Positions 1-64,000 of a stretch of DNA of 64,000 nt are shown piece after piece. The notes below the pieces were generated by a model that did not search any database, was not told where the DNA came from, and saw only the letters and a program-made list of their open reading frames with translations. A program made the translations under genes and the position numbers. The stretch is taken from positions 1,054,001-1,118,000 of the forward strand of contig CM022678.1 in NCBI GenBank assembly GCA_012295275.1, written 5' to 3'. Each line of letters begins with the position of its first letter. Positions within the stretch are counted from its first letter, which is position 1. This DNA comes from Chrysomallon squamiferum (taxonomy: Eukaryota > Animalia > Mollusca).

Positions 1-600
1 AAGAGGAGTTTCACCTTTTCTGTTCTTAACATTTACATCAGCACCTTTTTCAATCAGTGCTGTCACAATTTCTACATTTTGATTCTTAGCTGCAAAGTAT
101 AAAAGAGAACTGTTATCATTGTCTGTTAAATTAGGATCAGCTCCTTGTTTTAGTAAATATAAAAATATTTTGTAATGTTGAAATTTAACAGCTAGAAAAA
201 CAGGAGTTTCACCTTTTCTGTTCTTTACATTTATATCAACACCTTTTTCAATCAGTGCTGTAACAATTTCTATATATCCATGCTTTGCTGCTAAGTGTAA
301 AACAGAACTGTTATTATTGTCTGTTAAATTAGGATCAGCTCCTTGTTTTAGTAAATACAAAAATATGTTGTAATGGTGAAACTCAACAGCTGTAAAAAGA
401 GGAGTTTCACCTTTTCTGTTCTTAACATTTACATCAGCACCTTTTTCAACCAGTGCTGTAACAATTTCTACATTTCCATGTTCAGCTGCTAAGTATAAAG
501 CCGAATTGTTATCATTGTCTGTTAAATGAGGATCACCTCCTTCGTTTAGTAAATATAAAGCTATTTCTGGCCTGTGACACATCAAAGATACATGAAGAGG
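1..600 (-). repeat. 198-bp (66-aa) di-ankyrin tandem units in paralog A, about 3 visible
   Basis: The 'ggatcagctccttgttttagtaaata' block recurs at ~131, ~330 and ~528 with period 198. Confidence 0.9.
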
Positions 601-3600
601 AGTTTTCTTATCAATGTTAATTGCATTTATTTCAGCACCTTTTTTTATTACTTCTTTCACAACATCTATGTCAATTTCAGAGGCTGTGTGCAATGCTGAA
701 TTCTTGTTGTGATCTTTTATATTGATATCAGCACCATTTTCCACTAACAACAAAGCTACTTCCTTTCTGTGTGTCACTGCGTTTACAGCTTCATGAAGTG
801 GACTTTTTCCCTTTCTGTTTACTGCATTGACATCAGCATTTCTCTTTATTAGTGATTTTATCATATCTAAGTCACCACGCAGAACTGAGATGTGGAGGGG
901 CGTGTCTGAAGACAATAATTTTGAATTAATTTCGACATGAGACAACAGTTCGAAATCATTTTCATCTTCAAACATCTGAATCAAGTTCTGATTAACAGCT
1001 ACCTTCACATTAGGAACAGCTCCTTTATCAAGAAGACACTGAACAACATCTGCACTGTTAAACATCACTGCCACTTTCAGTACTTGACTTTTCTTCCAAT
1101 TCTCATCTCCATCATTACATCTCTGCTCAATGAGAAAATTCACTGTATCAGTGGCTCCCCATACTGCTGCTGCTAAAAGTACTTTATCTCTGTTCTCATC
1201 ATTTAAACAATCAGGTTTCAGTTTTACTATTTCTTTCATAACACCTGAATTACTCTGACAAGCAGCAATAATAGCAATGTCTTTAATTTTGTTTATTATA
1301 TCAATGGTAACCAGTTTTTTAAAAAGATGGCTTACATCAACAACTTCAGAAGTCTTCGAGTTCCAAAAATGCCATTTTCTTAAATCAAGTCTTACTTGGC
1401 TATGGAACCTAACCAATAACAGTTTAATGGCTTTTTCCTTGATTTCACTGTTGTGTTTCTCATTATTTATCAATTCAGCTAACAAACATGCAATCTGCAT
1501 ATTACCTGAACTAATAGAAGCAAGTAAAAGATCTGAATAGTCATTCAATTTCATTTCTTTTTCACAGTGTAACAGTTCTCTGAGTATGGGAACACTGTCG
1601 GTTTTTGAACAAGCAGCTACACCCAAGGAATCAAATGCTGAAGTAACACCTGATTTTAGCAAAATTCTGACAACATCTTCATCACCAAACAAACAAGAAA
1701 TATTCAAAAGTTCTTTTTTCAGATATGTTAATTTCATTTTACACAGATATTCAGTGAAAAATCTTGACAATGTTCTTAATCCCTTCACAATACATTCACT
1801 TTGAACAGAGGATGAAATTTCAAAATATGTTTCAGTATCCAAGTACTCGTAAATATAATCCTCTGAATAATTGTCAAGAAGACATGAAATATTGCTAAAT
1901 ATTTCATCAAGATTGTCTACATTTACAGATGATATACACAAATGTTCATGATTAGGTAGTTGTTGAAACAGTATTTCAGACAATTTATCATTAAAGTATT
2001 TCTCCTCTATGAGAAACTTGACAAACTCTTCATCTTTGAGTGATGGATGTGAAATAATGTCTTCGGCATTGGTTGATGCCAACAAGTCAGTAAATCTCCG
2101 AGCAAGAACATCAAAGCTGTTAGATTTCACAGTCATTGTAATGTGACTTTTGTTAGACACTCCAGGTGTCACAACATATTCTAACAACATTGAGACAGGA
2201 CACATTTCTAGCAACTCTGCTGCTTTCTTTGGAAACTCTGATGAAAAGATGAGAAACAATGAGTCAAACACTGACTGGTGAATAAATGAATATTTATTGT
2301 CATAAAACTTCAAATAGGTACCACACATTTCATCAGCTGTTTTCTTTATGTCTGTGAGATCAGTGTTTTTTACACTCCGACAGACTCGCTCTAGCTGTCT
2401 TACTAATTTCATTATGGCACTGTCAGAGTCATTTTCAAATGGGTCCAATAAATTAATGCTGAGACTGCCTTGTTGGAACAAAATCAGCAGTAGAACCAGG
2501 TACTTTATCCATGAACCAGGTAATTTATCATTTTTCAAATATTCCAGTTGTTGTGTGAGATATTCTACAGGATTCTCAAAAAACGCAACTCCTCTATTCT
2601 GTGCATCACTTGAATTAACATAATACACACACACCTGAGGAAATCCTAACTTTGTACATGAACAATAAATGACAGTCCATTTATCATCTTCTTCCATTGT
2701 AACATTCTTTTGTTCGAGATATGTGTTTAGAATTTCTAACTTCTCATCATCATTCAGACAACATTCATCGCTTTGCAGGTCAAGGAGATGATTTTCATTG
2801 AAGAGATCAAATTCGTTCAGACTGGCTATAATTTCTGTAAATATTTGTTTTCTTAAAGTAATAATACATCTCACACGCTCGTCTTTAACAAGACTCCACA
2901 CCTCTGGAAATAGCTGCTTCCAACACGACACAAAATCTAATACAAGATTAGTTTTACCAAATATGTCATCAATGAGAACAATACATGGTTTATCTTTAAA
3001 CACAGGAATGTATTTGAAATCAGAGTGATGAGTCACGATGTAAGGGTCTATTTTTTCTTTTTTCTCTATCTGTTTAATCATGTTCAGAGCTAGAGTTGTC
3101 TTTCCTGAACCTGGACATCCTACTACAATCACAACACCATTCTTTTTCAAAAGTGTTAGTCCTCTTTCTTCTGCTCTTGTTTCAACATAGACTCTCCAGT
3201 CAACTGTGTTTAACTGTGACCTGGTAGACTCTGTATCAACACATTAAAATAAAATAATATCTATTATTGATATATTTTAAATATATTTTACTATTTAGAT
3301 ATAGATAATATAATTTTAAACTAGTCATCAGATGTGAAATTTTTAAAATAAAGCAGAAGTTTTTTGTTATAATTTACTTCATCAGAATTTAATGACTATA
3401 CCATATCACAGTTTTAGCTGGTGTAAAAGTAACATAATGATTATCTTCTTATAAATTAAATCTTACAGAAGTAACAAAAACAATAAAAAATAAATAAAAA
3501 TAAACCTTTCATATGGGACGCTCGTCCATCAGTCTTTGCTGAAATAATATAAAAATAAAACAAGTAAATTTATATTATTGATGATGAGCAAAAGAGTATT

Positions 3601-3950: not shown

Positions 3951-4945
3951 CGGTGGGACGTCATAAGCACATAAGACAAAAGTGGGCCAACAAAACTGCG
4001 CTGGCGTAACATTTGTTATTATTACTGTTATTTTAATTATTATTTTATAAATATTAACAAATCATAAACTTCAAACATTTAGTTCCAAATTATAAGCATT
4101 CCTAGGTAGTCCATGACTTCAGTTTCTTCAAATTGTACGACGAGTGTTAGGAGGGCTGCTTTGGATCTCACAGATTTGGGAAATTTTTAAATACTGATTG
4201 GCCAGCATTAACATGTGTTATGACATTTTCCTAAGGAACTGTTCTTATCTGACTGATGCAGGATTATATTGTTCAATTTCACAACTTACAAGCATTATTT
4301 CTCAGATCCACATGTAGATCATACACTGCACACAGTATGAATAAAATCTGTCATTTGTTAGTATTATTGAATAAAACAATGTTTTAAAAAATGTGTAAAA
4401 TTCTTTATATTAAATGTAACTTTTTGCGTTTTTATACATATATACTAATGAGTATTTTGATGCATATTCTAATAAACAGGCAGGCAGGCAAAACAAAAGT
4501 TTCTGTTTTTGACTTGTCAATTAAATATTTTTAGTCTCATAATAGAACATTTCTAAAGTGAGATATATCTTAGTCACTCAGGCCAATGTTGTTGATGTGA
4601 TGAATGTCAGTTTAATTGTATCCATGAGCAATCTATCATTCAGCATAGCACAAAATGTTGTACAATCCTCATGTGAACTAAATGGTCGTTCACACAATTT
4701 GTGCACTCTTGGTAGTGGGTAGGCATATATGTGTGTATGCATTATGTCTGTGTTTGTTCATACACATATTTGGTCATACTGTTTGATGGTAAAATACTAC
4801 CAATTAATGTAACATACATTTCTGTTATCGATTAAAAATGTTTTGATTTTTAACTTACTGGTTTTCACAGCTTCATCTCCTGATACACTACTTCTGTTAC
4901 TTGATAGATTTTCATCTGTTTTCATATTTACATTACATTCTACCA
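1..4945 (-). CDS. NLR-like nSTAND3-type NTPase + ankyrin-repeat protein, paralog A (partial at both ends). Exons 4945-4859 (87 nt), 3538-3506 (33 nt), 3230-<1
   Basis: The large exon starts after an ag acceptor and reads ..DWRVYVETRAEERGLTLLKKNGVVIVVGCPGSGKTTLAL (Walker A ~3097-3120) ..CIVLIDDIFGK (Walker B) ..YSFIHQSVFDS.., then ankyrin repeats (GADPNLTDNDNSS../GETPLFTAV). Frame is consistent at spot checks and runs off the window, so it is absent from the ORF track. The small exons have ag/gt ends and keep phase 1. No start exon found. Confidence 0.88.
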
Positions 4946-10091: not shown

Positions 10092-10655
10092 CATAATAAT
10101 AATTATAATGATAATATAATTTTTTCTTTCCATAATAAGAGTCAAACCTGTTATATAATTTAAAATAAAAAAATTACACTGTGTACAAAAAACAACACAC
10201 ACCCTCAAACACTAAAAGAATGGTAATTAGAAGCGAGATGACATGAATTGTTTATATTTCCTTTTACTATTGACAATTTCAGTTAATAAACAAAAATTGT
10301 GTTAATATGCTAATCAGGGCTAATGATTTTCTCCATGGTGCTTCGGCTACATCTGTGATAGTTTTAATGTATGTTGATGAGTAAATGTTAGCGAGTATTA
10401 GAAAAATCCTAGATGTGGTGTGTAAGTCGCGGCATAAATTCATAATCAAAAAGAAAACAAAAGAAAAAACGCTTTCTTTGTAATAAACTATAAAGCACAC
10501 AAGCCACTCAAACAACTGAAAAATGATAATTAGAAGGGACATAACAGAAATCTTTCCACAATGGCATCATTTGTATTTGCTTTTGCAACCGATAATTTCA
10601 ATTAATAAACAGGAACTTTCTTAATTTCCTCATCAAGAATAGCAAATTTATTATT

Positions 10656-10687
<32 letters not shown>

Positions 10688-11932: not shown

Positions 11933-11996
<64 letters not shown>

Positions 11997-12924
11997 ATGA
12001 AGAAAAAAGGAAAAGAAATAAAAAAATAAAATAAAAAATTAAATTAAATTTTAAACAAAATGGTGGCACGTAATTTAAGATTATATTGACACTTTCGGAG
12101 AAGCGCCTGTCCGGAAAATGCAAATATCCTGAAAATCGTGAATGCAAACATGAAACCTAAAATTAACGGAAATACAAAATTTCATTACAGATAGCAGCTA
12201 CATAATACAGTAACAAAGTAATGTAGTAGCAATGTACAGACATAATAACAATGTAAACAAATGTCATACACTACATGAAAAGAAAATTGTAGAATAGGTT
12301 GGGTGAAGTTTGCAAGGTAAGGATAGTGATGGGTACAGTTTTAACTTGATGGAAAGTGCGAGGAGACAACGTTACTGTCATCGTGGGTTACGGAAATAAT
12401 GGCACTCGGAAGAAATGGCACTGTGCAGATTTGGAAAAAATGGCACCTGAAAAATACTTTTTATTGCTTATTGGCGTTTAGTTATTGGTAGTAGTTAAAG
12501 TCATCTTTATAGTGCATGAATAATATTTGAGAAAATTATTTAATGTGAGATGTTCATAATTAAACGTCAGTCAAAACAAATGTAAACCAAAGCTAACCCC
12601 TCTCTCTATATATAAATATATATCGAAAACAAAAATAAAATAAACATTTTAAATTTGCTTCTTTTTCACATTCATAAGAATCTTTCGAAAGTAATTAAAC
12701 AAACTACCTCGCATCTACAAAATTCACATTCTATTATTATTTGATGATAATAAAAATACATAAATAAATGAAGAAAGAACAACAACAATAACATTCAATA
12801 ACAAAATAGCTCTTGAAAGCAAAGAAATATCACGAAAACCAAAAGAAACAATATATTTATACAAAATAATCATTCAGTGTAATTTAAAGACCAATACATT
12901 CCACAAAATAATTTTAATAAAAAA

Positions 12925-13389
12925 TTAGAGTTTCACCTCGACTGTTTTTAATATTTACATCAACATCTTTTTTAATCAGTGCAGTCACAATTTCTGGCTG
13001 CTATGTGTAACAGAACTGTTGTCATTGTCTGTTAAATCAGGATCAGCTCCTTGTTTTAGTAAATATAATGGTATTTCTGGTATAATATAGAATACGGCTA
13101 CAAAAATAGTTTTACCTTCACTGTTAACTACGATTATTTCAACCACCCCGCTTTTTGTTACTTTTTTCATCATATTTGTTAATTTGTGATGTCATGTGCA
13201 ATGTTGAATTGTTTTGTTTAACAGTTATATCAGTATCAGCTCCATTTTCCAGTAACAACAAAGCTACTGCCTTTCTGTGTGTCACTGCTTTTACAGCTTC
13301 CTGAAGTGGAGTTTTTCTCTCAATGTTTACTGCATTAACATCAGCATTTTTCTCTATCAGTGATTTTATCATATCTAAGTCACCACGCA
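12925..13389 (-). pseudogene. Ankyrin-region fragment of the nSTAND3-ANK family (duplicate of 24615-25079)
   Basis: ORFs RGDLDMIKSLIEKNADVNAVNIERKTPLQEAVKAVTHRK and LYLLKQGADPDLTDNDNSS, frameshifted, homologous to 540-890. Confidence 0.85.
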
Positions 13390-13999
13390 TTGGATGTAAT
13401 AGCAGTGTTTCAAACACAGAACAAATTCGTAGTCTATCTGAACAGTATTACTGAATAGAGCAATGTATGTTTTAACAAATGTGTTTAATACTGTTAACTA
13501 ATTACACATAGATACACTGACTGATGACCTCAACATTATTTTACAACATTCAAACAAATAAAAGCCAATATAAGAATAATAATAACTGTCATGAGGAAAC
13601 AATAATTAGTGTGTGTTTTTTATTTAGTTATTTATTTATTTTTTATTTTTGCTGCTTTCAGCTGTCAGACAGTACTTAAACCTCTTTAAATTGTATATTT
13701 ATTATCAATGTAAATAAAAAAGTGTTAGTTTAGAAATAGTAAAATAGTTAACATTATATTGATGTATAGGGTATTGATAAAGATATAAACAAATTTTCAT
13801 ACTCCCTGACGAAGAATCATATATCGTGTTAAAAAAAAATTCTAAAACAACTCTCGTTAAATCTCTAACGGTTGACCTGCAAAAATGTAATCATTATCAC
13901 AAAGCATATAGAGTATGTTTTCTGAACTGCACTATTAAATTACATAAACCTAGTAATTATCAAAACAGTTTTAATAAGTTATATTCTTAGTCAACCCTA

Positions 14000-14545
14000 A
14001 TATCAACCTATTCTATATAAACAATGTAAATGTACATATCATAAGAATAATTTTACTAAATTAAGTAGAACAAACAATGAGAAATTGTTTCAACAATTTA
14101 TATTTACATATTTATTAACACTAATACTAAATTAAGTTAAATAAACAATGAAAATGTATAGAATAGTTTCATAAAGATATATTCTTAGTTTTGTCAATAC
14201 TAACACTAAATTGTAATATTAACAATGCTAATGATAGATAACATCAGAATAGTTTCAGTAAGCATATTTTTAGTTTTCTCAACACCACCACTAAATTGTA
14301 ATCTATAAATAAGGAAAATATACAGAATAGTTTCAGTAAGACATATTCTTGATTTTCTCAATACTAACACTAAATTATAATATAAACAATACAAATGTAT
14401 AGATAATATCAAAATAGTTTCAGTAAGCATATTTTTAGTTTTCTCAACACTACCACTAAATTGTAATATATAAATAAGAAAAATATACAGAATAGTTTCA
14501 GTATGTTATAACACTCAGTTTTCTCAATATCTATACTAAATTGTT
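14000..14545. repeat. Degenerate AT-rich minisatellite (unit about 73-78 bp)
   Basis: Recurrent 'aatagtttcagtaag..atattcttagttttctcaa..actaaattgtaat'. Confidence 0.75.
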
Positions 14546-14970
14546 ATACAAAAACTATCAATGAAAACTTACCAATATGCACCCATGTTTGTTTTTTCCA
14601 AACTGCAGAATGTTCGTGCATCAGATATGAATATTTACCTCCACTGTATTCAACAGCTGAGTCATTCACAGTAAATTTGACAAGAAGGAGAACGTCAGAA
14701 GAACAAATATGGCAGACAAAAGGAATGATACAGAAGTGATGTCCACAAAATTTATTCACTCACTGTCATTGCCCACCTCTAAAACAACACTTTAACAATT
14801 CTGTCTTGGCCAGGTATAAGTCCCAGTTTCGTCTCCGACGTTGTTGGCAGCTTTATAAAGATCTGTAAATATTAAAGTATTCAACCATTAAAACCTTTAC
14901 ATGATGTTATTTTTTTACAAATAATTTCTTTATGTAATTAAAAGATGATTTGTTGAACATTAAATATCCA

Positions 14971-17405: not shown

Positions 17406-20400
17406 ATTATATGACGTCACCGGGAGTGTGCGTTAGTTCTTGTTCGTAGACATTTTTGAAACAAATAAATATTTGGAAACTGAAATGAACTTTATGTTTT
17501 AATGATAAAACATAACAGCTGGCGACGAGGATGGGATAACACTTGTTCAACTGTTTCCTGAAATTAACTGTTTATGAAATATGGCTACCTACGGTAAAGT
17601 TGAAGAGTTTGATCTAGAAAGTTCCGATTGGGATGAATACATCGAACGTTTGGAACAGTATCAGTTGCCGAATGAATGTAAGTGAATTTTTGGCTGAATT
17701 AAGAAAACTGGCAGAACATTGTGAATTTGGTGCATTTTTGACTGAAGCATTAAGAGACATTTTGGTCTGTGGTCTGTCTGAAAAGTCAGTACAGAAAAAA
17801 ATTCTCTCTGAACATGACTTATCACTGAGGAAAGCCTTGCAAATAGCTGTTAGTATGGAAATGGCAGCTAGATAAACTGACAAGGTGAAAATAGGAATTA
17901 AGTCAGAAACAGAAAAGTTCCACAAAGTTTCTGTCATTGAATGCTTCCAGTGAAACTAATCATCATCCTGATGCATGTTTTTACAAAAAGGCAAACTGTT
18001 ATAACTGTAATGAAACAGGACATTTTAGTAGAAAATGTCGAAATCAAAAGAAAAAAATAGAAAGACAGGAAAGCAAACAGATGGAAAAAGGAAAAAAAAC
18101 AAATTTCCAAAGTTGAAAAAGAAAAATTCTAAACTTCATGTTCTGAATCAAGATTCTGATAGGGACCTTACGGAATCACAAAGTGGTACCAGTGATTCGG
18201 AAATTGAAAATGCTGAATCTGAAACAGGTTTAAAAATTCATGAAGAATCTGGAAGTAACACAACTGAATCAGAAATTATAAAAGCTGTTCTAGAAAATAA
18301 AGAGGTTGCATTGGAAAGAAATGACAGTGATTTTGAACAGTCAATTTTCACAGTGAAATCTACGAAAGCGAAAGAAATTCAAATTTCATTGGAACTCAGT
18401 GGTGTGCCATTCAAAGTGGAAGTAGATACAGGTCTTCTGTGTTGATGATTTCTAATAAGAGTTATCAGGAAAGATTGAAGAAAACAGTACCATTGAAATC
18501 AACATCGATTGTGTTGAAAACATACAGATGAAGTGGTGCCAGTCCTGGGGCAAATTGAGGTGATTGTTAAACATGGAAAGCAGAAAAAACTGTTACCTTT
18601 AATTGTGGTGAAAGGAAATGGACCAACTTTGTTTGGACGGAATTGGTTCCAAAACATTCAGTTGGACTGGAACCGTATTAAGATTATGAAAGCCTGTGGA
18701 AACCCTGAAAATTTGTTCAGTAGATATTAAATTTTTTCATATGAGTTGGGAACAGTAAATGACATAAGAGCTCATCTGAAAGTGAAACAGGATGCTACTC
18801 CAAAGTTTTTCAAGGCTAGACCAGTACCTTATGCTTTGAAGGAAAAGATAGCTGATGAACTTCACAGACTTGATGCAGAAGGAATAGTAGAAAAGGTGGA
18901 TTTTTCTGAATGGGCTTCTCCTATTGTACCTGTTTTAAAAACTGACAGTACCATTTGCATTTGTGGTGATTACAAGATTACCATAAATCCTGTGTTGGAA
19001 GTGCCCGAGTACCCTTTGCCCACTGCAGAAGACATTTTCAGCAAACTCAATGGAGGACAAAAGTTCTCCAAACTGGATTTGTCACATGGATACCAGCAAG
19101 TGTTGCTTGATGAAGAGTCGAGGAACTATGTCACAATCAGTACTCACCTTGGACTTTATCGCTATACAAGGTTGCCATTTGGAGTTGCTGCAGCGCCTGC
19201 TATTTTTCAACAAACTATTCACAAAGTGCTTCAAGGGCTAAAAGGTGTAGGTTTTATTTTTGATGACATCATAGTCACTGGAAAGGATGACACCGAACAC
19301 TTGAAACATTTGAAAAACACTTTGAAACGCCTAGAAAAATATGGAATTCAACCGAAAAGGTCCAAATGTGCATTGATGAAAGATGAAGTTGAGTACTTTG
19401 CATTTATTGTGAACAAAAATGGGATTCAACCTTTGAAAGAAAAGTTGAAGCTATTCTGAAAGTGCCTGAACATAAGAACAAGAGTGAGTTGCAATCTTGG
19501 TTAGGTATTGTGAATTATTATCGCAAGTTTGTACCCAACACGTCAACAGTGGTGGCACTGCTAACAGCGTTGTTAACCAAAGACTCGGAGTGGAAATGGA
19601 GTGATGATTGTCACCAAGCATTTTTCAAAGTGGGAAAACTGTTAGCATCATCTAAAATTCTTGTCCACTATGACCCGATGAAACCAGTAATGTTGGCAGT
19701 AGATGCATCTGCGCATGGTCTTGGAGTGGTAATATCACATGGAAATGAAGGATCAGATAGGCCAATAGCATACGCTTCTAGAACTCTGACATCAGCAGAA
19801 CGCAAGTATTCCCAGATTGAGAAAGAAGCATTGGCAATAATTTTTGGAATACACAAGTTCCATCAGTACCTGTATGGTAGAAGATTTACTTTGTTCACAG
19901 ATCATAAACCACTGACAATGATTTTTGGACATAAAAAGAATATTCCTGTTCTGACAGCCTGTCGACTACAGCGTTGGGCTATTCAGTTAGCTGGATATCA
20001 GTTTGACATTAAGAACAGAAAAACTACCAAAAATGGAAATGCTGATGCGTTGTCCCGACTACTACTTCTGCAAACTGAAGAAATTTCTGAAAATGTGTTT
20101 TGGCATGAAGACAAGCAAGCAATGAGAAATCAAGTCAATGGATTACCTATCACTGCAAGAAATATTGCGAAAGCAACTTAAGTTGACAAAGTGTTATCTC
20201 GGGTTGTACATTATAACATGTATGGATGGCCAGAAGAGTCTTCTATTTCACCTGAGCTGTTACCTTATTTCAGAGTGAAAGATGAATTAACCGTGGAGGA
20301 ACACTGTCTTCTCAGAGGAATGCGAGTGATTATTCCCGATAAATATCGAACAGATATTCTGTATTATCTTCATGAAAATCAAATAGGAATTGTGCGTATG

Positions 20401-21557
20401 AAATCTTTGGCTAGATTGGATTTGACCCACCAAACCATGGCAAACAATACATGTTGATTTTGCTGGACCATTCATGAAAGAAATGTTCATGATTGTGATG
20501 GATGCACATTCTAAATGGATCAAAGTTTTTCGAATGTCCAGTACCAGAGCAACGCATACAGTAGAGACATTGAGAAATCTCTTCGCAAGTTATGGAACGC
20601 CAGAGCAGTTGATTTCTGATAATGGACCTCAGTTTGTTGCAGAGGAATTTGAAACATTTCTTAAGAAAAATGAAGTGAAACACATCAAATCAGCTCCATA
20701 CCATCCAAGTTCAAATGGCGAGGCAGAAAGAGCTGTTCGTACTTTCAAAACTGCAATGAAAACAGTTGAGTCACGAACCATGAACCAGAAGATTTCATCA
20801 TTCTTGTTTGCGTATCGGAACAAAATGTAGTCCATCAGAATTGTTTCTTGGCAGACGTGTTCGAACGAGATTGGATATCTTGCGTCCAAGTTCGGAGAAC
20901 TCTGTTAAAAAGAGAACTATTCCAAAAGCAAATAAAACACGGGTGTTCAGTGTTGGAGATTCAGTACAAGTGAAGAACTACAGAAGATCTGACAAATGGT
21001 TGAGTGGAAAAGTATTGTGTCAGCTAGGGCCTGTTACCCACAGAGTGAAAGTTGGAGATTTTGTGTGTAAAAGACATGTGGATCAACTTCGTAAATGTGC
21101 GTATTCTGAGGATAATAGTATCACTTTCCCAGAACTGTCTGCAGTTGGTACTCAGTCTGAAATGGAATTTGTTGAACCAATGGACATACTTGATAAACTG
21201 TAATTGAAATATTATGGTGTCCAATGAAAAAAAAAAAAAAAAAAAAAAATTTGTTTTAAGTTCAAAGTTCAGTTGTTTAATTATTACTAATTAGTAAAGC
21301 ACACAAATTTATTTTAGAATTTTAGATATAAGATAATTTGTGGGTAAATTGAAAATTTTGAGGGGAGGAAGTGTTGTATCTAAATGGTGTTAGGGTTAAC
21401 ATTGTTACAGTTTACAATGTTTAGGGGAACCGGAATAAGACAGTATTATATGACGTCACCGGGAGCGTGCGTTAGTTCTTGTTCGTAGCCATTTTAGAAA
21501 CAAATAAATTGTTTGGAAACTGAAATGAACTTTATGTTTTAATGTTAAAACATAACA
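17406..21557 (+). mobile_element. Gypsy/Ty3 (Mag-like) LTR retrotransposon, near full length but defective: truncated 5' LTR 17406-17517, gag from 17581, pol, 3' LTR 21372-21557
   Basis: gag start MATYGKVEEFDLESSDWDEYIERLEQY, zinc knuckle CYNCNETGHFSRKC, PR-RT-RH-IN order, PPT gaggggaggaag, 186-bp LTR TGTTG...TAACA; internal deletions, stops and frameshifts. Confidence 0.95.
17520..17537 (+). other. Primer-binding site complementary to the 3' end of tRNA-Ser(GCT)
   Basis: tggcgacgaggatgggat, 2 nt after the LTR-terminal CA; its reverse complement is ATCCCATCCTCGTCGCCA. Confidence 0.8.
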
Positions 21558-21656
21558 GTTACGTGACTGACATGCAGATATTTCATGCTTAATCTAGTCT
21601 ATGTACTTCTAAGTGCAGTTCGTTCTAGGTCACGTGTTTATTTCTATATACCAATT

Positions 21657-21693
<37 letters not shown>

Positions 21694-21739
21694 CAAATTG
21701 GGAAGTGGAAAGAGGAAGAAATAAGACAAAATAACTCGA

Positions 21740-21770
<31 letters not shown>

Positions 21771-22335
21771 CATAATAATAATTATAATGATAATATAATT
21801 TTTTCTTTCCATAATAAGAGTCAAACCTGTTATATAATTTAAAATAAAAAAATTACACTGTGTACAAAAAACAACACACACCCTCAAACACTAAAAGAAT
21901 GGTAATTAGAAGCGAGATGACATGAATTGTTTATATTTCCTTTTACTATTGACAATTTCAGTTAATAAACAAAAATTGTGTTAATATGCTAATCAGGGCT
22001 AATGATTTTCTCCATGGTGCTTTGGCTACATCTGTGATAGTTTTAATGTATGTTGTTGAGTAAATGTTAGCGAGTATTAGAAAACATCCTAGATGTGGTG
22101 TGTAAGTCGCAGCTGAAATTCATAATCAAAAAGAAAACAAAAGAAAAAACGCTTTCTTTGTAATAAACTATAAAGCACACAAGCCACTCAAACAACTGAA
22201 AAATGATAATTAGAAGGGACATAACAGAAATCTTTCCACAATGGCATCATTTGTATTTGCTTTTGCAACCGATAATTTCAATTAATAAACAGGAACTTTC
22301 TTAATTTCCTCATCAAGAATAGCAAATTTATTATT

Positions 22336-22367
<32 letters not shown>

Positions 22368-23611
22368 TTATGATTATTATTATTATTATTATTCACTTCT
22401 TCGGAACACAAGTCTGACTTTTACGATATAAGTTTTAGCAATGTTAATGATATATACAGATAACAAACTATTTTTAAAAAAATCAGTAAATAAATAAATC
22501 ATCACACTTGTACATCAACACAAAAAAAATCAATTAAACCATTTATTATTATAACTGGCAAAATTTCATTTTCTATAATAAAATAATGAACATTTGCAAA
22601 ACAATAAAGTTAGTTTTTCCCTAATTCGTATCTACATTACAGTATATGATAATTATAGACACATATAATACGATGTTACACAAAAAAATGAAAAGAAGAA
22701 TCACATTCGCAATTCAACACTAAAACGTTCCATTAAATCGATTTATAATAAAATAATAAAGACTTGTAAAACAGTAGTCTGTTCTTTGCTAATTCATTTC
22801 TACATGACAAAACTCATGTTAAATATTTCAAGTACATGTCTAGATCACGTGACAATGATCTGATCTTAAACTAACGTGACATTGACTAGTGAGCTTGTTT
22901 ATTTTAAAATCTAACGACAAAGAAAGCTGAGTATTAATAATAAACTTTTCATTCTTAAACACTTACCAAGTCAGTAGATATTGTACTATTTATTTTTGAT
23001 TTAATTTCTTAATTCATCGCATTATTGTAATTTAATAAATAATTTCATTTAATGAAAACAAGAAATTTAACAATAAGTTAACTTGAATATTTCGTTACCG
23101 CTTGTCAAAAAATTATTTTAACAAAAAGATACTCTATGTTAAACAGTTAAAACAAATAATAATAATAACAATAATAATTATAATTATAAAAAAAAACCCA
23201 GATAAAACAAAAAGATAAATATCATGAACAAAATCAACTAATGAATATAACTGTAATAAGGAGTATCCACTGTAGCCATTTTAAATTTCAGCTCAGTTTT
23301 AGATTATAATTGAATCAAATCAGAATATAGAAATTAACCTGTTACTTTATTAACGCTGAAGATATTTTTGACCAATGATTTCTCATAATTATTCTACCTT
23401 TTTTGCAATTCCCGAATTTAGTGAAATAGACCTGTATCAGTATTTGAGGAAACTGATTTATTTCAATTTTCTCTTAATAAAGAAAGAGTTATTCCGTAGA
23501 CATGTTATTCCTCCATCGCCTATTTCATAAGACAACTGAACAAAGTGTACTTCGTCAACAGCGGTTTTACTTAAACACCGCTTCCATTATTGGAGGATTT
23601 TTTCTTTCGTC

Positions 23612-23684
<73 letters not shown>

Positions 23685-25079
23685 ATGAAGAAAAAAGGAA
23701 AAGAAATACAAAAATAAAATAAAAAATTAAATTAAATTTTAAACAAAATGGTGGCACGTAATTTAAGATTATATTGACACTTTCGGAGAAGCGCCTGTCC
23801 GGAAAATGCAAATATCCTGAAAATCGTGAATGCAAACATGAAACCTAAAATTAACGGAAATACAAAATTTCATTACAGATAGCAGCTACATAATACAGTA
23901 ACAAAGTAATGTAGTAGCAATGTACAGACATAATAACAATGTAAACAAATGTCATACACTACATGAAAAGAAAATTGTAGAATAGGCTGGGTGAAGTTTG
24001 CAAGGTAAGGATAGTGATGGGTACAGTTTTAACTTGATGGAAAGTGCGAGGAGACAACGTTACTGTCATCGTGGGTTACGGAAATAATGGCACTCGGAAG
24101 AAATGGCACTGTGCAGATTTGGAAAAATGGCACCTGAAAAATACTTTTTTATTGCTTATTGGCGTTTAGTTATTGGTAGTAGTTAAAGTCATCTTTATAG
24201 TGCATGAATAATATTTGAGAAAATTATTTAATGTGAGATGTTCATAATTAAACGTCAGTCAAAACAAATGTAAACCAAAGCTAACCCCTCTCTCTATATA
24301 TAAATATATATCGAAAACAAAAATAAAATAAACATTTTAAATTTGCTTCTTTTTCACATTCATAAGAATCTTTCGAAAGTAATTAAACAAACTACCTCGC
24401 ATCTACAAAATTCACATTCTATTATTATTTGATGATAATAAAAATACATAAATAAATGAAGAAAGAACAACAACAATAACATTCAATAACAAAATAGCTC
24501 TTGAAAGCAAAGAAATATCACGAAAACCAAAAGAAACAATATATTTATACAAAATAATCATTCAGTGTAATTTAAAGACCAATACATTCCACAAAATAAT
24601 TTTAATAAAAAATTAGAGTTTCACCTCGACTGTTTTTAATATTTACATCAACATCTTTTTTAATCAGTGCAGTCACAATTTCTGGCTGCTACATGTGTAA
24701 CAGAACTGTTGTCATTGTCTGTTAAATCAGGATCAGCTCCTTGTTTTAGTAAATATAATGGTATTTCTGGTATAATATAGAATACGGCTACAAAAATAGT
24801 TTTACCTTCACTGTTAACTACGATTATTTCAACCACCCCGCTTTTTGTTACTTTTTTCATCATATTTGTTAATTTGTGATGTCATGTGCAATGTTGAATT
24901 GTTTTGTTTAACAGTTATATCAGTATCAGCTCCATTTTCCAGTAACAACAAAGCTACTGCCTTTCTGTGTGTCACTGCTTTTACAGCTTCCTGAAGTGGA
25001 GTTTTTCTCTCAATGTTTACTGCATTAACATCAGCATTTTTCTCTATCAGTGATTTTATCATATCTAAGTCACCACGCA
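18143..25079. repeat. Segmental duplication copy 2 (continuous with flanking element and pseudogene sequence, so probably the source copy)
   Basis: Matches 6454-13389; here the Gypsy continues upstream and the ankyrin fragment continues past the breakpoint. Confidence 0.95.
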
Positions 25080-25408
25080 GAACTGCAATGTGGAGTAGTG
25101 AGTCTAAAGGCAACAATTTCAAACTAGGTTTACATAGAAGAAACAGTTTCAATCTAGTGTGTTCATCGGATCACAGTTTTAATCTAATTTCCTCTTCAAA
25201 CACTTGAATCAATTTCTGGTTAACATCTACATTCACATTAGGATCAGCTCCTTTATCAAGAAGACACTGAACAACATCTACACTGTTAAACATCACTGCT
25301 ACTTTTCTTCCAGTTGTTTTCATCTATATCATTACGTCTCTGGTCAATGAGAAAATTCTATGTGTCAGCAGATCCCCATATTGCTGCTGCTAAAAGTACT
25401 TGCTCTCC
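24615..25408 (-). pseudogene. Ankyrin-region pseudogene fragment of the nSTAND3-ANK family
   Basis: Homologous to ~400-1190 (KVLLAAAIWGS..AVMFNSVDVVQCLLDKGADPNV..LHIAVLRGDLD); deletions and frameshifts; no NTPase part. Confidence 0.88.
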
Positions 25409-55031: not shown

Positions 55032-57019
55032 GTAAGTAAATGTTTTATTTGTTTGAATTACTTACATTTACAAACAAGCAGAAACACATACATACATGTA
55101 CACATTTCAAATTCAATTGTGATTGCCAGTAAAAATAGTAAAATTTAATATTATAAGCATACAGTGGAAGCTAATCACAAGCTAGTCAAAATTTATTGAA
55201 AAATGACTTCAGTCTTGTTGTAGTTTGTTATTTATAATTCTTTCTTTACTAGTTTTCAACCTTTACATTAAGTATCGCATGCTGACTTCAGTAAGCAAAT
55301 TTCATTTCTGTATCTGATACTAGAAATAATTAACATTGAATAAAATGAATTTTTACCTTAGTTACCTAATGTTTTCTTTGCTATTATTTATTTATTTATA
55401 CTTCAAACTTGATGTAACAGGTATGAGATCTTTATTGAATAGTGTCTAACTTGAAATTCTGATCAATGCTGTTTTTTGTGGGTTTTTTATTTTGTTATTT
55501 TGTTATTATATTTTTTCCTAAGGTAGCAAATGACTGTGTCACCTGTTATTCATTTTAAGAAATAAAATAAGTTGTTACGCTTTGTACACAGTGTAACAGT
55601 ATGATAAGGGCTATATACTGTACTATTTGTAGATGCTATTACTTCCTTAGTGGTTTGTCAGCTGCAGAACAGAAAAAAAACCATTCAGAATAAATGAGTA
55701 CATAAACATGAAATCACAAGATCAAGTTTTGGAATGAAGAATATTGCTGATTATTGAAAACTGAAGTTTGAAAATTATCAAAGTATGTTATACTGGCATA
55801 GAAATAAATAAAAATTATCATCTAATATTTATTTAACAGATACAACAGACTTCTAACCCTGTTTTGAAATATTACCCTTGTACATACTAATTTATTCCAA
55901 AACTTAAAAATTTAAGAACTTCTTATGGTATTAAATAAGTAAATATATTACAATATAATTAAACTGAGTACAAATAAATGTGAGTAATCTACTAAAAAAA
56001 ACAAAATCAGAACACAGGAGAGTATAATATACATCTGCGAAAATGTTTAGCATTCCGGTGTTAGAAGAGGGTTTTTTAATCACAGTATTGTCACATAATT
56101 AGTCCTATTTAACACTAATAACATATCATTCCAAAGTATGGCGCTGCAGAGTTTATAAAATAGTTTAAGAAATTGTTTTACAGAGAAAATGTTATTTTGA
56201 GTCTCTATTACGTCTGTAGTTAAAGAGTTCAGTGACAAGTAAACATTCAACTGACTTCAACATCTGACTTGTCTTTACACTTACATATTGAATTGTCAGA
56301 TGGTCATTCCCAGTGCTAAGCTGATTCACTTTCTCTGTGTATATAAAATGCTCACTGATGTGCTACAGTGGTTTCAAAGCTGGACTCGTAACTGGCCAAG
56401 GCAGAAGTGTTACAGCTTTGTTAAAGGTGTATATTTGTGACATTTCCATTTGTATTGTTTATATCACATAATATACTATAGTGAGAGTATAAATAAAACT
56501 CTTCCAATCTTATCTATATATTTATTTTGTTTTTTTATAATTTAATGCAAATGACAAAACTAATAATATAATTTAGTTATTATTCTGATGATTATTATAT
56601 TTATTACTTTGTCTTTGTCATAATTATAGACATAATTTAGTACTGTAGTTTAAAAGAATCCTGTAAATGTTTTGGGATAATTATTTGAGTTAATTATTAC
56701 AAAATATTTTGAACGAACTGGCTCTATTATGATGCAAGAGTAATTAATTACAAGAATATTAAGTTTTCACATAAGCAATGCTCAACAAGTCATGTATGAA
56801 ATTGTAGGGACTGTCTGTGGGTAGGTGTAAATGAAATATCACTTGTTAATAAGAAAGAGTAGATTGAAGTGACAGCAAAGGATTTTTCTTTTGTTGTCTG
56901 AATATTCCTAAATCTTATCTCTAACCTCATATAAATTAAATGAGTTCAATAAAACATTTGTTTTCTTCCTTCTGTATTAAAAATCAATCATTATATTATT
57001 ATTTTACAGCTCAACCAAT

Positions 57020-58656
57020 ATGGACAACAAAAACAAGAGTTCAGAAGTTTCTTCTAACAGCACAGCTGCTGCTTCCACAGACAATATCAGAGCTGTTTCT
57101 TCTGTAGAGACTGAGACAGCTGTTTCTCTCTTAGACAGTATGACAGGTGTTTGTCTCTCTAACATTGCATCTCAGTCTTCCTTTGATGTCGCAAAAACAC
57201 AACATCATTTACAAGTACCTGTATCAAGCAGTTGTGGTAATATGCACAGTATTTTAATATAATGTTTACTTTTTTGATAGAATATTATAAGCATTAGAAT
57301 TTTGTTTATATTTATAACAATAGAATATTTCAATGTATTGTTTATGTTATTGATGGTAAATTCTAAACTGACAAATGTATTATTTACATTTGGAACAAAA
57401 CACTGTTTCAGTATATTGTTTAGTTCCGTCTTAGGTATTAGTTAAATTGACACTTTTTAAATTTATATTGATAATGAATTAGCAATTTAAAGTTTTACAG
57501 ATTAAAACAGTAATTCAAAATACACACTACAGACTGTTTGATTATGACCATTATAATTATTCTTGTATTTATTGTTATACATTTTTATACTGTAAAGTAA
57601 TATTTATTTCATAACAGCTAGACATAATCAGTCAAAAACATTTTTAACATATATTGTTTTATTTAATAATGCTTTTGACAAAAACAGATTGTATTAATAC
57701 TGTATGTTGTCCTTACAAACATTTTTAAAAATTATGCTTCTGAGTGGTAAATTTAAAAAATGTACTCTGTTTCACAGATACTCCAATAATACAACTTGTA
57801 CAACGGAAACTAAATATATCTGACTGTGGAAATGTTCTAATAGGAGACAATAGCACTTTAATCAGTAAGTTGAAAACTAAAGTTGTTTTCTTTTCTCTAG
57901 ATGTTTAGTTGATAACAGAACACACATGTGACATATTGATTCTCAAGGAGATGTGTCCAGATTCTGAGATATGAATAGATTTGGCATCCACATGCAATGT
58001 TGTCTCTAATGTATCATGTATATATCTTGGAAACTGACTAAGTTGTACTAAGAAACACATTTGTTAAAAATCCCTTGAAAATTCATAATTAGCCTGCAAC
58101 AGAATATCCTATCAATAACTTGCTGAATATATATATTTGTGAACTTGGTGGAGGTTTTGTCCTGTTTTTGGTGCTCATGAACTTACTGGATGTAACCTAA
58201 AACAGCAGTGAACTACACAAGTAAAAGGTAAGTAACAGACAAGTTGATATCACCAAGCTCACCCAGTAACTGTTTAGAACTCATTTTTCTTTGTGCTGAC
58301 CTACCAACTATATAGCTACATTTTCCCACGACAAAAACTACTTATTTTTCAAAAATTTAAATCAAATATATTTTAAACCATTAATGTTGGCCAGAATGCA
58401 AAGCCCACATGTCATATGTGACCTGTGTCAACCAATAACCAGTACACTTCCAAGGATTCTGTGATCTGCTATTCTTTGCTAAACTTTATTTCACCTGTTT
58501 CTGAACACTGCTTCTAAAATCGTCATTTTCATTATCTTACATGTATATGCATGTTTTACATGTAGGCTGTGAATGTAAATTATTTATTTTTCTACATTTG
58601 CAACAACATAAGCAGTGGTAGAACATAATGTAAAACAAAAATACAGTACAAAGAAC

Positions 58657-58711
<55 letters not shown>

Positions 58712-59195
58712 GCATAAGCATAATAGTAATAATACTAATAAAAATAATAATAATTATAATTGTACTAATAGTATGAACAATAACAATAACCAAATAATAA
58801 TAGTCATAAAAAACAACAGCAGTGGTTTTAATAATGGTAGTAATAATTACAGTAAAATAGATAATGAAGGTATAATAATAATGTTACGTGTTAACAGTTC
58901 CCTGAATAAAGTACAGACTAGTTGTACAGATCAGTTTCATCATTTCTTTTACTCATCATCAATAACACAAACTTGTTTTATTTTTATATTATTTCAGCAA
59001 AGACTGGTGGACGAGTATCCAGTATCAAAGGTATTATTTTTATTATTATTATTTTTATTATTATTATTTGTATAGTTTTCAAACATAATCATCTTGTTGC
59101 TTTTGCACCATCTGAAATTGTCACATCTTATTATCTTCATTAAAATCTATTGTAATTACTTTTTTAAACTTCATATCTAACAACCAGTTAACAGT

Positions 59196-59247
<52 letters not shown>

Positions 59248-62200
59248 ATAGTAAAATATGCTCTAAACAATCATGATTTGTTTATTTTATTTTATTTTTT
59301 TTATTTAATGTTGTGATCAGAGTGTACCAGGTCAGTGTTAAACTCAGTTGACTGGAGTGTCTATGTTGAAACAAGAGCAGAGAAAAGAGGTGTTGCACTT
59401 TTGAAGAAGAACGGTGTTGTCATTGTGATAGGATGTCCAGGTTCAGGAAAGACAACTCTTGCTTTGAGCATGATGAGACAGATGGAAAAAGAAGAAAAAA
59501 GAGTATCTTACTTGCTGACTCATCACTCTGAATTCAGTGACATCTCTCTATCTAGAAATAAGAAATATGTTGTTCTCATTGATGATATATTTGGTAAGAC
59601 TAATCTTGTTTCACATTTTAGAGACTCATGGAAAGAGAAATTTCCAGAGATATGGAGTCTTGTTCATGCTGGTTCTTTGAAATGTATTATTTCTTTAAGA
59701 AAACAAATATATTCAGAAAGTGAAACTAGTTTGAAGGAATTTGACCTGTTTAATGAGAATCATGTTCTTGATCTGCAGAGTTATCACTGTTGTCTGTATG
59801 ATTATGAAAAGGAAGAAATTCTAAACAAATATCTCAAAAAAAAGTATGTTCCAATGCATGAAACTGATAAAATGACTGTCATTAAAAGTTCATGTACAGA
59901 GTTAGGATTTCCTCAGGTGTGTGTGTATTATATTAATTCAAGTGATGCACAAAAACGAGGAGTTGAGTTTTTCAAGAAACCTGTAGAATATCTCACACAA
60001 CAGCTGGAAAATATGAAAAAAGACAAAACTTTACAGATCAATTACCTGGTTCTACTGCTGATTTTGTTCAAAGAAGGCTGTCTCAGCATTGATTCACTGG
60101 ATCCATCTCAAAATGACTCTGACAGTGACATAATGAAATTAGTAAGACTGCTAGAGCGAGTCTGTCAGAGTGTGAAAAACACTGGTCTTACAGAGATCAA
60201 GGAAACAGCTGATGTACTGTGTGGTACCTATTTGAAGTGTTGTTACAATGAATACACATTTATTCACCAGTCAGTGTTTGACTCTGTGTTTCTGATGTTT
60301 TCATCAAAGTTTCCAAAGAAAGCAGCAGAATTGCTAGAAGTGAGTCCTGTCTCCATGTTGTTAGAATATGTTGATACGCCTGGAGTGTCTAACAGAAGTC
60401 ATATTACATTGACTGTGAGACCTGACTGCTTCGATTTTCTTGCTCGCAGATTCACTGACCTGCTGGCTTCAGACAATTTCATAGAAATTATTTCACATCC
60501 ATCACTGAAAGACGAAGACTTTTTAAAATACCTGATAGAGGAAAAATACTTTTATGGTAGATTATCTGAAATTCTACATCAAAGACTATATCAAAATACT
60601 CCTGAATTGCAGCAAAGACTATATCGTTTACATACATTTGGGAGCCTTTATATATCATTTGTTTGTGTAAACACTGCTAATGAAATATTTAGAAATATTT
60701 CCTGTCTTCTTGACAATGAATCAAGGTTTCATTCTCATCACAAATGGTACTTAGAAGTTGAAGAAAAATTTGCATATTCGTCATCTGTTCCAAGTGAGTG
60801 TATTGTGAATGGACTAAGAACATTGTCAAAATGTTTCACATCAAATCTGTGTAACATGAAACTAACATTTGTGATGAAAGAGCTTTTGGATATTTCTTGT
60901 TTGTTTGGTGATGAAGATGTTGTGAGAATGTTGCTAAAATCAGGTGTTATTCCAACATTTGATACATTCAGTGCAGCTGCTTGTTCAAAAACAGACAGTG
61001 CTACCATACTCAAAGAACTGTTTTTTTATAAAAAGGTGGTAAACTTGAATTTGTATTCCCACTTGTTACATATTTCATTTTGTTCAGGTAACATGAACAT
61101 TGCCTGTCTGTTGGTTGAGATGATAAATAATGAGAAACACAACAGTGAAATCAAGGAAGAAGCTGTGAAACTGTTTTTGGTTAGATTCCATAGAAAAGTA
61201 ACATTTAAATCAAGCTGCATGTGTTTGGAAAAGGCTCTTAAAGTTGCTGATGTAAGCCATATTTTAAAGAAATTGGTTACCATTGATATAATAAACAAAA
61301 TTAAAGACATTGCTATCATTGCTGCTGGTCAGAGGTCTTCAAACATTATAAAAGAAATAGTAAAACTGAAACCTGATTGTTTAAATGATGAGAACAGAGA
61401 TAAAGTACTTTTAGCAGCAGCAATGTGGGGATCTACTGATACAGTGAATTTTCTCATTGAGCAGAGATGTAATGACAAGTGGAAGAAAAGTCAAGTACTG
61501 AAAGTGGCAGTGATGTTTAACAGTGCAGATGTTGTTCAGTGTCTTATTGATAAAGGAACTGATCCTAATGTGAATGTAGCTGTTAACAAGAAATTGACTG
61601 AGTACTTTGAAGAGGAAATTGAATTGAAACTGTTGCCTGATTACAACATAAATATAAATAAACTGAAATTGTGGTGTAGAGATAAACCTAGTCTGTTGCC
61701 TTCAGACTCACCCCTCCACATTTCAGTTCTGTGTGGTGACTTGGATATATTAAAATCACTGATAAAGAGAAATGGTGATGTTAATGCTGTAAACATTGAG
61801 GGAAAAACTCCACTTCATGAAGCTGCAAAAGCAGTGACAAACAGAAAGGAACTAGCTTTGTTGTTACTGGAAAGTGGTGCTAATACTAACACTGCAGATA
61901 AACAAAAGAATTCAGCATTGCACATAGCTTGTCAAATTCACATAGATGTGGTGAAAGAAGTAACAAAAAGGGGTGTTGAAATAAATGCAATTAACTCTGA
62001 AGGGGAAACTCCTCTTTTTTTATCCTTACTCTATGGCAGACCAGAAATCACTTTATACTTACTAAGACAAGGAGCTGATCCTAATTTAAGAGACCGTTAT
62101 AACAATTCAGTTTTACACGTAGCAGCTCAACAAGAAAATACAGAAGTTTTGGCAGCACTGATTGAAAAAGGTGTTGATGTAAATAATAAAAACAGAAGTG

Positions 62201-64000
62201 GTGAAACTGCTTTTTTTACAGCAATGTATTCCTACAAACATCATTTTTATGGACATCAGAATATAGAGTCTCATAAGAACAAAGCTGTTTTGTATTTACT
62301 TCAACATGCAGCTGATCCTAATTTAACAGAGAACGATAAAGATTTTGTTTTACACATAGCAGCTGAAGAAGGAGATATAGACCTTTTGATAGCACTGATT
62401 GGAAAAGGGTTTGATGTAAACATCAAAAACCTTCGAGGTGAAACTCCTCTTTTTACAGCTCTTAACTGCAAACATGATAAAGTGGTTTTGTATTTACTGG
62501 AACATGGAGCTGATCCTAATTTAACAGGTATTGGTAACAATTCTGTTTTACACTTAGCAGCTAAACAAGGAAATATAGAAATTGTAACAGCACTGATTGA
62601 AAAAGGTGTTGATGTAAATATTAGAAACACTTCAGGGGAAACTGCTCTTTTCACAGCTGTTCGGTATCAACAGAAGAAAGTAGTTTTGTATTTACTGGAA
62701 CATGGAGGTGATCCTAATTTTACAAACGATAGTAACAATTCTCTTTTAGGCCTAGCAGCTAATCATGGAAATTTAGAAATTGTGACAGCACTGACCGAAA
62801 AAGGTGTTGATGTAAATATAAAAGAGAGTCTTCTTGGTTATACTCCTCTTCTTACAGCTACAAGATGCACATCGAACAAAGTATTTTTCTGTTTACTGGA
62901 ACATGGAGCTGATCCTAATTTGACAGACAATGGTGACAATTCTGTTTTACACCTAGCAACTGAAAACGGAAAGAGAGAAATTGTAACAGCACTGATTGAT
63001 AAAGGTTTTGATGTAAATATTAGAAACAGAAGAGGTGAAACTCCTCTTTATACAGCTCTGAATTACCAGAAACCTGTGATTGGTACAGTAGATGATATAT
63101 ACTGTTGTAAGAACAAAGTAGCTTTTTATTTACTGGAACATGGAGCTGATGTTAATTTAACAGACAATGATAGCAATTCTGTTTTACATGTAGCAGCTAT
63201 ACATGGAAATATAGAAATTGTGAAAGCACTGATTGAAAAAGGCTTTGATGTAAATATGAAAAACACTAGCGGTGAAACTCCTCTTTTTACAGCTCTGAAT
63301 TATGATGTATTTCATTTTTGCGAACATCAAGATAAGAGTAAAGTAGCCTATTATTTATTGGAACATGGAGCTAATCCTTGTTTAACAGACAGTGATAATA
63401 ATTCTGTTTTACACCTAACAGCGAAACAAGAAAATATAGAAGTTTTGACAGCACTGATTGAAAAAGGTGTTGATGTAAATATCAGAAACAGTCGAGGTGA
63501 AACTCCTCTTTTTACAGCCATGAACTCTATACAGAATGAAGTAGTTTTTTATTTACTGGAACACGGAGCTGATCCTAATTTATCAGACAATGATAAGAAT
63601 TCTGGTTTACTCCTAGCAGCTAAACATGGAAGTCTAGACATTGTGACAGCACTGATTGCAAAAGGTGTAGATGTAAATATTAGAAACTGTAGAGGTGAAA
63701 CTCCTCTTTTTACAGCTTTGATTTGCTACGACATATATTTTGGCCAAGATCAAGATATGTACTCTCGTAAGAGCAAAGTAGCTTTGTATTTACTGGAACA
63801 TGGGTGTGATCCTAATGTAACAGACAATGATAACAATTCTGTTTTACACATAGCAGCAGAAACTGGAAATATAGAAATTGTGACAGCACTGATTGAAAAA
63901 GGTGTAGATGTAAATATTAAAAACTGTAGAGGTGAAACTGCTCTGTTTGCAGCTGACCAGTATAGACAGTGTGAAGTAATGTTGTATTTACTGGAACATG
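57020..64000 (+). CDS. NLR-like protein, paralog B: Ser-rich N-terminus + RHIM-like motif + nSTAND3-type NTPase + helical region + long ankyrin array (3'-partial, >1670 aa). Exons 57020-57236, 57778-57864, 58998-59030, 59321->64000
   Basis: All introns are gt-ag and phase 1. Walker A GCPGSGKT at 59431-59454, Walker B VLIDDIFG ~59572-59595, FIHQSVFDS motif ~60260, ankyrin repeats from ~61700 to the edge. The 4.68-kb exon appears open to the window end. Confidence 0.92.
57810..57863 (+). other. RHIM-like amyloid signalling motif LNISDCGNVLIGDNSTLI
   Basis: Ungapped match to the human RIPK3 RHIM (VNIYNCSGVQVGDNNYL, from memory): N, I, C, V, G, D, N and L are identical; core tetrad is VLIG. Confidence 0.72.
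62071..64000 (+). repeat. Di-ankyrin tandem array, 9 units visible (198-bp base unit; 201/225/237-bp variants)
   Basis: GADPNL-type starts at 62071, 62308, 62506, 62704, 62905, 63142, 63367, 63565 and 63802. Confidence 0.93.

Follow-up and report, generated by a model that had tools for sequence, protein, structure and literature searches.

We describe a gene at the right-hand end of a 64,000-nucleotide stretch of the genome of the mollusc Chrysomallon squamiferum (assembly GCA_012295275.1, contig CM022678.1, positions 1,054,001 to 1,118,000 of the forward strand; the whole stretch is called the window). The gene encodes an NTPase of the nSTAND3 family followed by ankyrin repeats, and a short exon upstream of the NTPase carries a motif that resembles RHIM. 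Its features are as follows.

57020..57236, plus strand: coding exon 1, ATG and 72 codons, Ser/Thr/Ala/Val-rich and of low complexity (17 Ser of 72), covered by RNA contigs.
57778..57864, plus strand: exon 2 (87 nt, phase 1 on both sides), AG/GT ends with a consensus donor; the carrier of the motif.
57810..57860, plus strand: RHIM-like motif of 17 codons within exon 2, tetrad V-L-I-G from 57834.
58998..59030, plus strand: linker exon 3 (33 nt), AG/GT ends; an intact counterpart of equal length lies in paralog gene A at 3538-3506.
59362..59838, plus strand: nSTAND3 NTPase (PF20720), in which Walker A (59431-59454), the Walker B di-Asp and the sensor-1 Arg are all intact.
59839..60300, plus strand: STAND helical domain with the GxP motif, and winged-helix region, as modelled; G-F-P-Q invariant in 10 of 10 rows.
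61710..64000, plus strand: ankyrin array, a two-repeat unit of 198 bp with variable insertions, running off the window.

This is a real nSTAND3-ankyrin gene with four in-frame GT-AG exons. The exons (57020-57236, 57778-57864, 58998-59030 and 59321-64000+, all on the plus strand) have AG/GT ends and phase-1 junctions throughout; joined, they give a single open frame of 1672 codons up to the window edge, and the open frame of exon 4 has 1561 codons. A preliminary description of this DNA, made from the sequence alone, proposed a low-complexity N-terminus and four phase-1 exons, and the ends, the phases and the open frame all agree with it. All exons are symmetric, so that omission of exon 2, exon 3 or both leaves the frame intact. 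The first Met of exon 4 is residue 52, downstream of Walker A (residue 39); exon 4 therefore depends on an upstream exon. In a scan for further open phase-1 exons, introns 1 and 2 gave nothing and intron 3 gave one 63-nt candidate. Upstream of exon 1, at 56382-56422, lies a candidate 5' untranslated exon of the gene.

For exons 1 and 2 there is no match in Pfam at E<=10, and this holds for RHIM too. A death-fold, TIR or enzymatic domain within the 112-residue leader was considered and is ruled out by the lack of a Pfam match and by the low complexity. The original statement that the protein bears no such effector holds for the part within the window; the window ends at 64000, and the C-terminus falls beyond it, out of reach of this statement.

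The NTPase matches PF20720 with E 1.6e-27 (96.5 bits, the curated cut-off being 27.2), which confirms its first assignment. The columns of Walker A, Walker B, sensor-1 Arg and GxP are invariant across 10 of 10 aligned relatives; these, together with the winged-helix region, are what we take to be the STAND features of nSTAND3. The predicted structure (pLDDT 87.6) has a fold that matches many AAA+ ATPases; the best TM-scores among the matches listed are those of the NB-ARC of NRC1 (0.50) and NLRP2 (0.48), and Avs5 (E 1.5e-4) and SAMD9 are matched as well. The STAND region and the ankyrins are encoded together in exon 4, which contains 21 Pfam Ank stretches within the window; the earlier count of more than 20 repeats is thus correct. 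The array has a period of 198 with 77-85% matches, pN is close to pS between repeats (0.19 vs 0.20, and 0.27 vs 0.31), and the repeat columns combine an invariant framework with very variable positions. The gene thus encodes an ATP-binding nSTAND3 switch joined to a long ankyrin array, and its product is likely an intracellular immune receptor of a gastropod.

The nearest proteins are those of Gigantopelta aegis (43-45% identity, the top five), then of Haliotis and Solemya, so that gastropod nSTAND3-ankyrin relatives are the closest. A family profile search returned 3450 cluster representatives at E<=0.001. The N-termini of the relatives include caspase (P0015), CARD (P0044), Death (P0144) and PARP (P0148) domains, HEPN_DZIP3 (P0043, P0045, P0118, P0158, P0164) and SAM (P0086, P0110, P0136). 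Many other relatives have a low-complexity leader only. The motif of the Chrysomallon protein occupies the position where relatives have caspase, CARD, Death, SAM, HEPN or PARP domains, and homolog gene models hold motif and NTPase in one chain. Judged by these comparisons, the family shows expansion and swapped N-terminal effectors, and our receptor is an unexceptional representative of a molluscan nSTAND3-ankyrin family that was already known.

The motif was scored against a ten-feature RHIM template drawn from PMC4262963, PMC9444067 and general RHIM background. It scores 7 of the 10 features with a shuffle p of 0.015, and the three features missed are polar positions. Over all six reading frames, the window has 8 positions that reach 7, and the 7 besides the motif lie outside the described exons. 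In a deep mutational scan of RIPK3, V450, I452, V458 and V460 are essential for nucleation, and a second interface is required in RIPK1 only (bioRxiv 10.64898/2026.02.19.706818). The aliphatic residues of the motif at -8, -6, 0 and +2 (Leu, Ile, Val, Ile) have exactly the spacing of these four RIPK3 residues; its Gly, Asp and Asn are in register with RIPK3 G461, D462 and N463, and an aliphatic residue at +8 corresponds to RIPK1 M547. This comparison was made after the template scoring, and the two agree on the spacing. By itself the aliphatic tetrad often arises by chance (shuffle 0.24); once the Gly is added, p is 0.015. The loose core VxxG of insect cRHIM (PMC13506858) fits as well, although the pattern is too loose for diagnosis. 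A search of the PDB with the exon-2 peptide sequence returned no match.

Recurrence of the motif was sought in 179 homologs, 74 of which have a leader of at least 25 residues; 71 were kept after removal of near-copies for the test with the query motif, while the template and pattern counts refer to 72 sequences in 39 groups hand-drawn from a quick tree of 75 rows. Seven features are reached in 4 of the 72 leaders, in 3 of the 39 clades (shuffle mean 0.42, maximum 3 in 300 shuffles), and six features in 16 of 72 (shuffle mean 6.1, maximum 13; downstream controls 1, 10 and 5). The strict tetrad is found in 2 of 71 homologs (P0071 and P0074; p 0.115). The positive rows group together on the tree, with 10 changes against 14.8 when shuffled, owing in part to five closely related scallop-like rows. 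In 9 of 33 hand-picked pairs of otherwise unrelated N-termini, the best ungapped match between leaders is in register on the template sites; for P0140-P0062, P0153-P0062 and P0020-P0014, p is 0.005-0.01 with template scores of 5-7, but the test is partly circular, since the template itself selects similar residues. Relaxed patterns exceed the shuffles (14/72 vs 5.9; 10/39 clades vs 5.5, p 0.034); they were written post hoc and also match the NTPase region (18/72), and we give them little weight.

Sites proposed for comparison are those of P0140, P0020, P0026, P0062, P0074 and P0165. P0086 has a SAM domain and a six-feature motif together. A subfamily of P0010, P0012, P0058, P0059 and P0060, two of them named Haliotis, has a distinct 16-residue leader motif rich in Gly, Thr and Asn, which could be a second motif of the amyloid type.

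The window stretch is present in five sequencing runs from two studies, four of which are on record as RNA; four of the five runs, all but X4, were aligned to the window. Runs X2-X4 contain less than 0.2 of the sampled words and were left out of any reading on habitat. A contig of run X2 (509 letters, 0 differences) joins 57022-57235 to 57777-58071, and exon 2 is therefore spliced to exon 1. We infer that exon 2 is included in the NTPase transcript. More contigs match at 90-95% identity than at >=99% (278 vs 123 in X1), as expected given the many paralogs.

On this basis we propose that the receptor signals by amyloid templating through its RHIM-like motif, a reading to which we give not quite half of our belief. 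The ankyrins would bind a ligand, upon which the NTPase would oligomerise, as is usual to presume for a STAND protein; the clustered motifs would stack into a cross-beta seed that replaces a folded effector domain, and the seed would recruit a partner bearing a matching motif, the outcome being cell death or signalling of the NF-kB type. Besides the match at the nucleation positions and the recurrence in homologs, three observations count in favour: a symmetric exon of its own encodes the motif, and RNA shows this exon spliced to exon 1; the motif is located where the relatives have effector domains; and bacterial Avs5 has nSTAND3 as an immune switch. Partners bearing RHIM are plausible in molluscs, because RIPK1 and RIPK3 originate in Mollusca according to a review (PMC13506858) and a title on a RHIM-containing protein of oyster is among the references of bioRxiv 10.64898/2026.02.19.706818.

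A number of results weigh against amyloid templating. The mammalian core tetrad is (V/I)-Q-(V/I/L/C)-G (PMC9444067), and the motif departs from it, with Leu instead of Gln at position 2 (V-L-I-G). The RHIM Asn residues at -4 and +6 are replaced by Asp and Ser, the apolar +8 being kept. Pfam RHIM is matched at E<=10 neither by the query nor by 13 homolog sequences (six motif stretches and seven whole), in a search where the HMMER filters discard weak matches. A profile of seven motifs, poorly aligned, retrieved no RHIM chain from the PDB; its six matches, hexapeptide beta-helix proteins and a capsid protein, have E 0.06-2.9. Our verdict is that the motif is RHIM-like, resembling RHIM at the nucleation positions, and is not a bona fide RHIM: it has the aliphatic tetrad and the Gly-Asp-Asn spacing, and it lacks a strict mammalian tetrad and a Pfam match.

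The homologs contribute further points on the same side. At the clade level, six features are reached in 10 of 39, inside the shuffle range (maximum 13). Pairs that include the query are in register in 3 of 12 cases and significant in none (lowest p 0.05, off the motif), and the query motif alone retrieves 8 of 71 leaders at p<=0.05, with 3/71 and 2/69 for controls and 0-6 for exon-1 peptides. Unseeded motif discovery missed the query motif and returned only the Gly/Thr/Asn-rich motif of the five-member subfamily; iteration seeded with the query was overfitted (11.5 vs 9.96 +/- 0.92 for shuffles, maximum 12.2; exon-1 seeds up to 11.6). Homologs show no excess of the bare aliphatic tetrad (8/72 vs 11.5), and with the Gly it occurs in 1 of 72. 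Homologs that bear an effector are not significantly depleted of the motif (Fisher p 0.08-0.24). Conservation of the motif, which the preliminary description named as a check, is modest overall: the count at seven features speaks for it, and most other tests are weak or negative. We read the beta-prone Gly/Asn motifs before the NTPase as a family that is real but loose, the query being among those closest to the RIPK3 spacing.

In the RNA, the same X2 contig retains the start of intron 2, unspliced through 58071 (207 bases past exon 2), and contigs of X1 and X5 likewise cross the exon-2 donor without splicing (57865-58100). The junctions 57864/58998 and 59030/59321 are absent among the contig matches listed, the repeats beside both sites having been skipped. 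Of the three junctions proposed at the outset, 57236/57778 is thus present in RNA; in the same matches the 87-nt exon is joined to exon 1 and no link to the NTPase exon is seen. As regards the partner postulated from the start, none turned up among the frames of the window or in a database search that started from the motif frame, where none of the 7 candidates reached E<=10.

The last point of this kind comes from the other end of the window, where a neighbouring paralog lost the motif exon while keeping an open NTPase-ankyrin frame.

1..3230, minus strand: paralog gene A, open nSTAND3-ankyrin exon, 64% identical to the main gene, running off the window.
4490..4574, minus strand: upstream of gene A, a motif exon that is dead, with a one-base insertion, two stops and the donor lost.
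4859..4945, minus strand: another candidate exon of gene A, likewise of 87 nt and phase 1, but Ser-rich and motif-free; the main gene has a decayed counterpart of it in intron 2.

The stops in the dead exon fall at the Gly and Asn codons of the motif. Exon retention is reciprocal: the Ser-rich exon is kept in gene A and decayed in the main gene (~58597-58641), and the converse is true of the motif exon.

The principal alternative is a sensor without a signalling module of its own, the motif being a beta-prone stretch that drifts within a shuffled leader of low complexity. Such a protein would signal by co-oligomerising with caspase, CARD, Death or HEPN paralogs, or the stretch would be a non-amyloid docking peptide. 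We regard this as a serious possibility, although a doubtful one on the whole. Gene A with its open frame and dead motif exon, the predominance of weak or negative conservation tests, the existence of effector-fused relatives and the missing polar ladder residues all fit it well. It leaves unexplained the six hydrophobic or Gly positions and the Asp-Asn at the exact RHIM spacing, and the recurrence of the motif, in register, in distant clades whose leaders are otherwise unalignable.

It is also conceivable that the motif exon is not attached to the NTPase at all. Read-through from exons 1-2 into intron 2 gives a frame that stops after 115 codons with the motif near its end, and this motif-only protein of 115 residues could act as a decoy or amplifier, the receptor transcripts skipping exon 2. 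The unspliced contigs agree with this: the sole listed contig with the exon 1-2 junction goes 207 bases into intron 2, and those of X1 and X5 cross the donor. However, the exon-2 donor conforms to the consensus, the first 800 bases of intron 2 contain neither AATAAA nor ATTAAA, and the homolog gene models combine motif and NTPase in one chain. Unspliced contigs cross intron 1 too, as would be expected of nascent RNA or DNA in the libraries. We therefore consider this explanation unlikely. That the gene is a decaying, functionless copy in a birth-and-death cluster is very improbable: several broken ankyrin fragments and retrotransposon insertions in the window and a dN/dS to the paralog of 0.47-0.96 might suggest it, but the frame is open over 1561 codons, the NTPase motifs are intact with a dN/dS of 0.47 in this domain, and a spliced transcript exists.

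As to the surroundings, frameshifted ankyrin fragments of the same family lie between the two open genes at 12920-13447, 24608-25405 and 28825-29664 on the minus strand, an arrangement that we read as a probable birth-and-death cluster. Just upstream of an ankyrin fragment, 13524-14823 (minus strand) contains pieces similar to intron 1 and to the 5' untranslated exon candidate of the main gene, which suggests an internally deleted paralog. A 7-kb segment is duplicated at 99.0% identity (6454-13389 and 18143-25079), and the copies would reflect either a recent tandem duplication or an assembly artefact; the segment contains an ankyrin gene fragment and a broken element with protease-, reverse-transcriptase- and integrase-like parts, by eye an LTR retrotransposon. 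A run of N, an assembly gap, lies within ~41990-42190, between the two genes.

Returning to amyloid templating by the receptor, it is tempting to extend it to the family. Effector-less nSTAND3-ankyrin receptors of snails, scallops and clams would then carry an exon-encoded, fast-diverging RHIM-like motif and template a shared partner for cell death or NF-kB in a fungus-like manner; motif exons would be gained and lost between paralogs, and a motif-only splice form might serve as decoy or amplifier. We consider this extension possible but more doubtful than the proposal for the single gene. If true, it would explain how many effector-less molluscan nSTAND3-ankyrin receptors signal, and amyloid signalling by immune receptors would extend to a large gene family of molluscs. 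In the literature found, such signalling by NLR-type receptors is demonstrated in fungi and supported in bacteria, and animals are represented by a sequence-based mention for amphioxus only; a 2021 review (PMC7889193) lists as open whether RHIM is the sole signalling amyloid of Metazoa. The locus offers a 17-residue candidate on its own exon and a natural paralog that lost the motif exon.

The RHIM-like leader recurring in effector-less nSTAND3-ankyrin members appears to be unreported. No paper joining RHIM with nSTAND3 and no title dealing with RHIM-like motifs of STAND receptors in molluscs was found in literature whose coverage leaves out most subscription journals; among the papers listed for nSTAND3, none concerns molluscs, judging by titles and the opening of the abstracts. 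The word "RHIM" is absent from the main text of Kaur et al. 2021 (PMC8195603) and from the 12 of 13 supplementary files searched. Nevertheless, amphioxus, fungi and bacteria provide precedents for the layout, and the statistical support is modest. The novelty of a non-NACHT amyloid receptor in invertebrates was overstated at first, given the RHIM-NACHT-repeat protein of amphioxus (2014, PMC4262963) and the bivalve nSTAND3+ankyrin proteins (2021, PMC8195603).

The closest relatives in composition are the nSTAND3+Ankyrin proteins of Crassostrea in the supplements of Kaur et al.: they have the same NTPase family, ankyrins, lineage-specific expansion and swapped N-terminal domains, but the listed forms carry folded domains such as TRADD-N, whereas here only a short motif precedes the NTPase. 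Many RHIM proteins are described in amphioxus by Kajava et al. 2014 (PMC4262963), and BF82280 has the motif-NACHT-repeat layout of fungal NWD2. It is likewise an invertebrate STAND receptor with an N-terminal RHIM, known from sequence prediction only, and our motif has the N-terminal position described there; BF82280 differs in its NACHT domain, its cephalochordate origin and a significant RHIM profile match, our motif of a molluscan nSTAND3 protein falling below Pfam RHIM.

With mammalian RIPK1, RIPK3, ZBP1 and TRIF the motif shares the nucleating aliphatic tetrad spacing followed by Gly-Asp-Asn; the tetrad Gln, the Asn at -4/+6 and the kinase or TIR adaptor context of these proteins are all absent here. 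To insect cRHIM it is similar in the loose VxxG core. The PP-motif NLRs and NWD2/HET-S of fungi and the bacterial BASS3 NLR/Bell have the same order of short amyloid motif, STAND and repeat sensor (PMC4262963; bioRxiv 10.1101/2020.01.06.895854). For fungal PP and bacterial BASS3, unlike our gene, the same motif recurs in an effector encoded next door, and the two share a G-phi-Q-phi-G core (bioRxiv 10.1101/2020.01.06.895854). The internally conserved, reshuffled repeats of fungal NLRs resemble our ankyrin array (PMC13449251). Finally, bacterial Avs5, which employs nSTAND3 in phage defence (bioRxiv 10.1101/2025.07.08.663546), differs from our receptor in its enzymatic Sir2 effector in cis, its TPR/PPR repeats and its prokaryotic origin, and agrees with it in having an nSTAND3 switch with a C-terminal repeat sensor.

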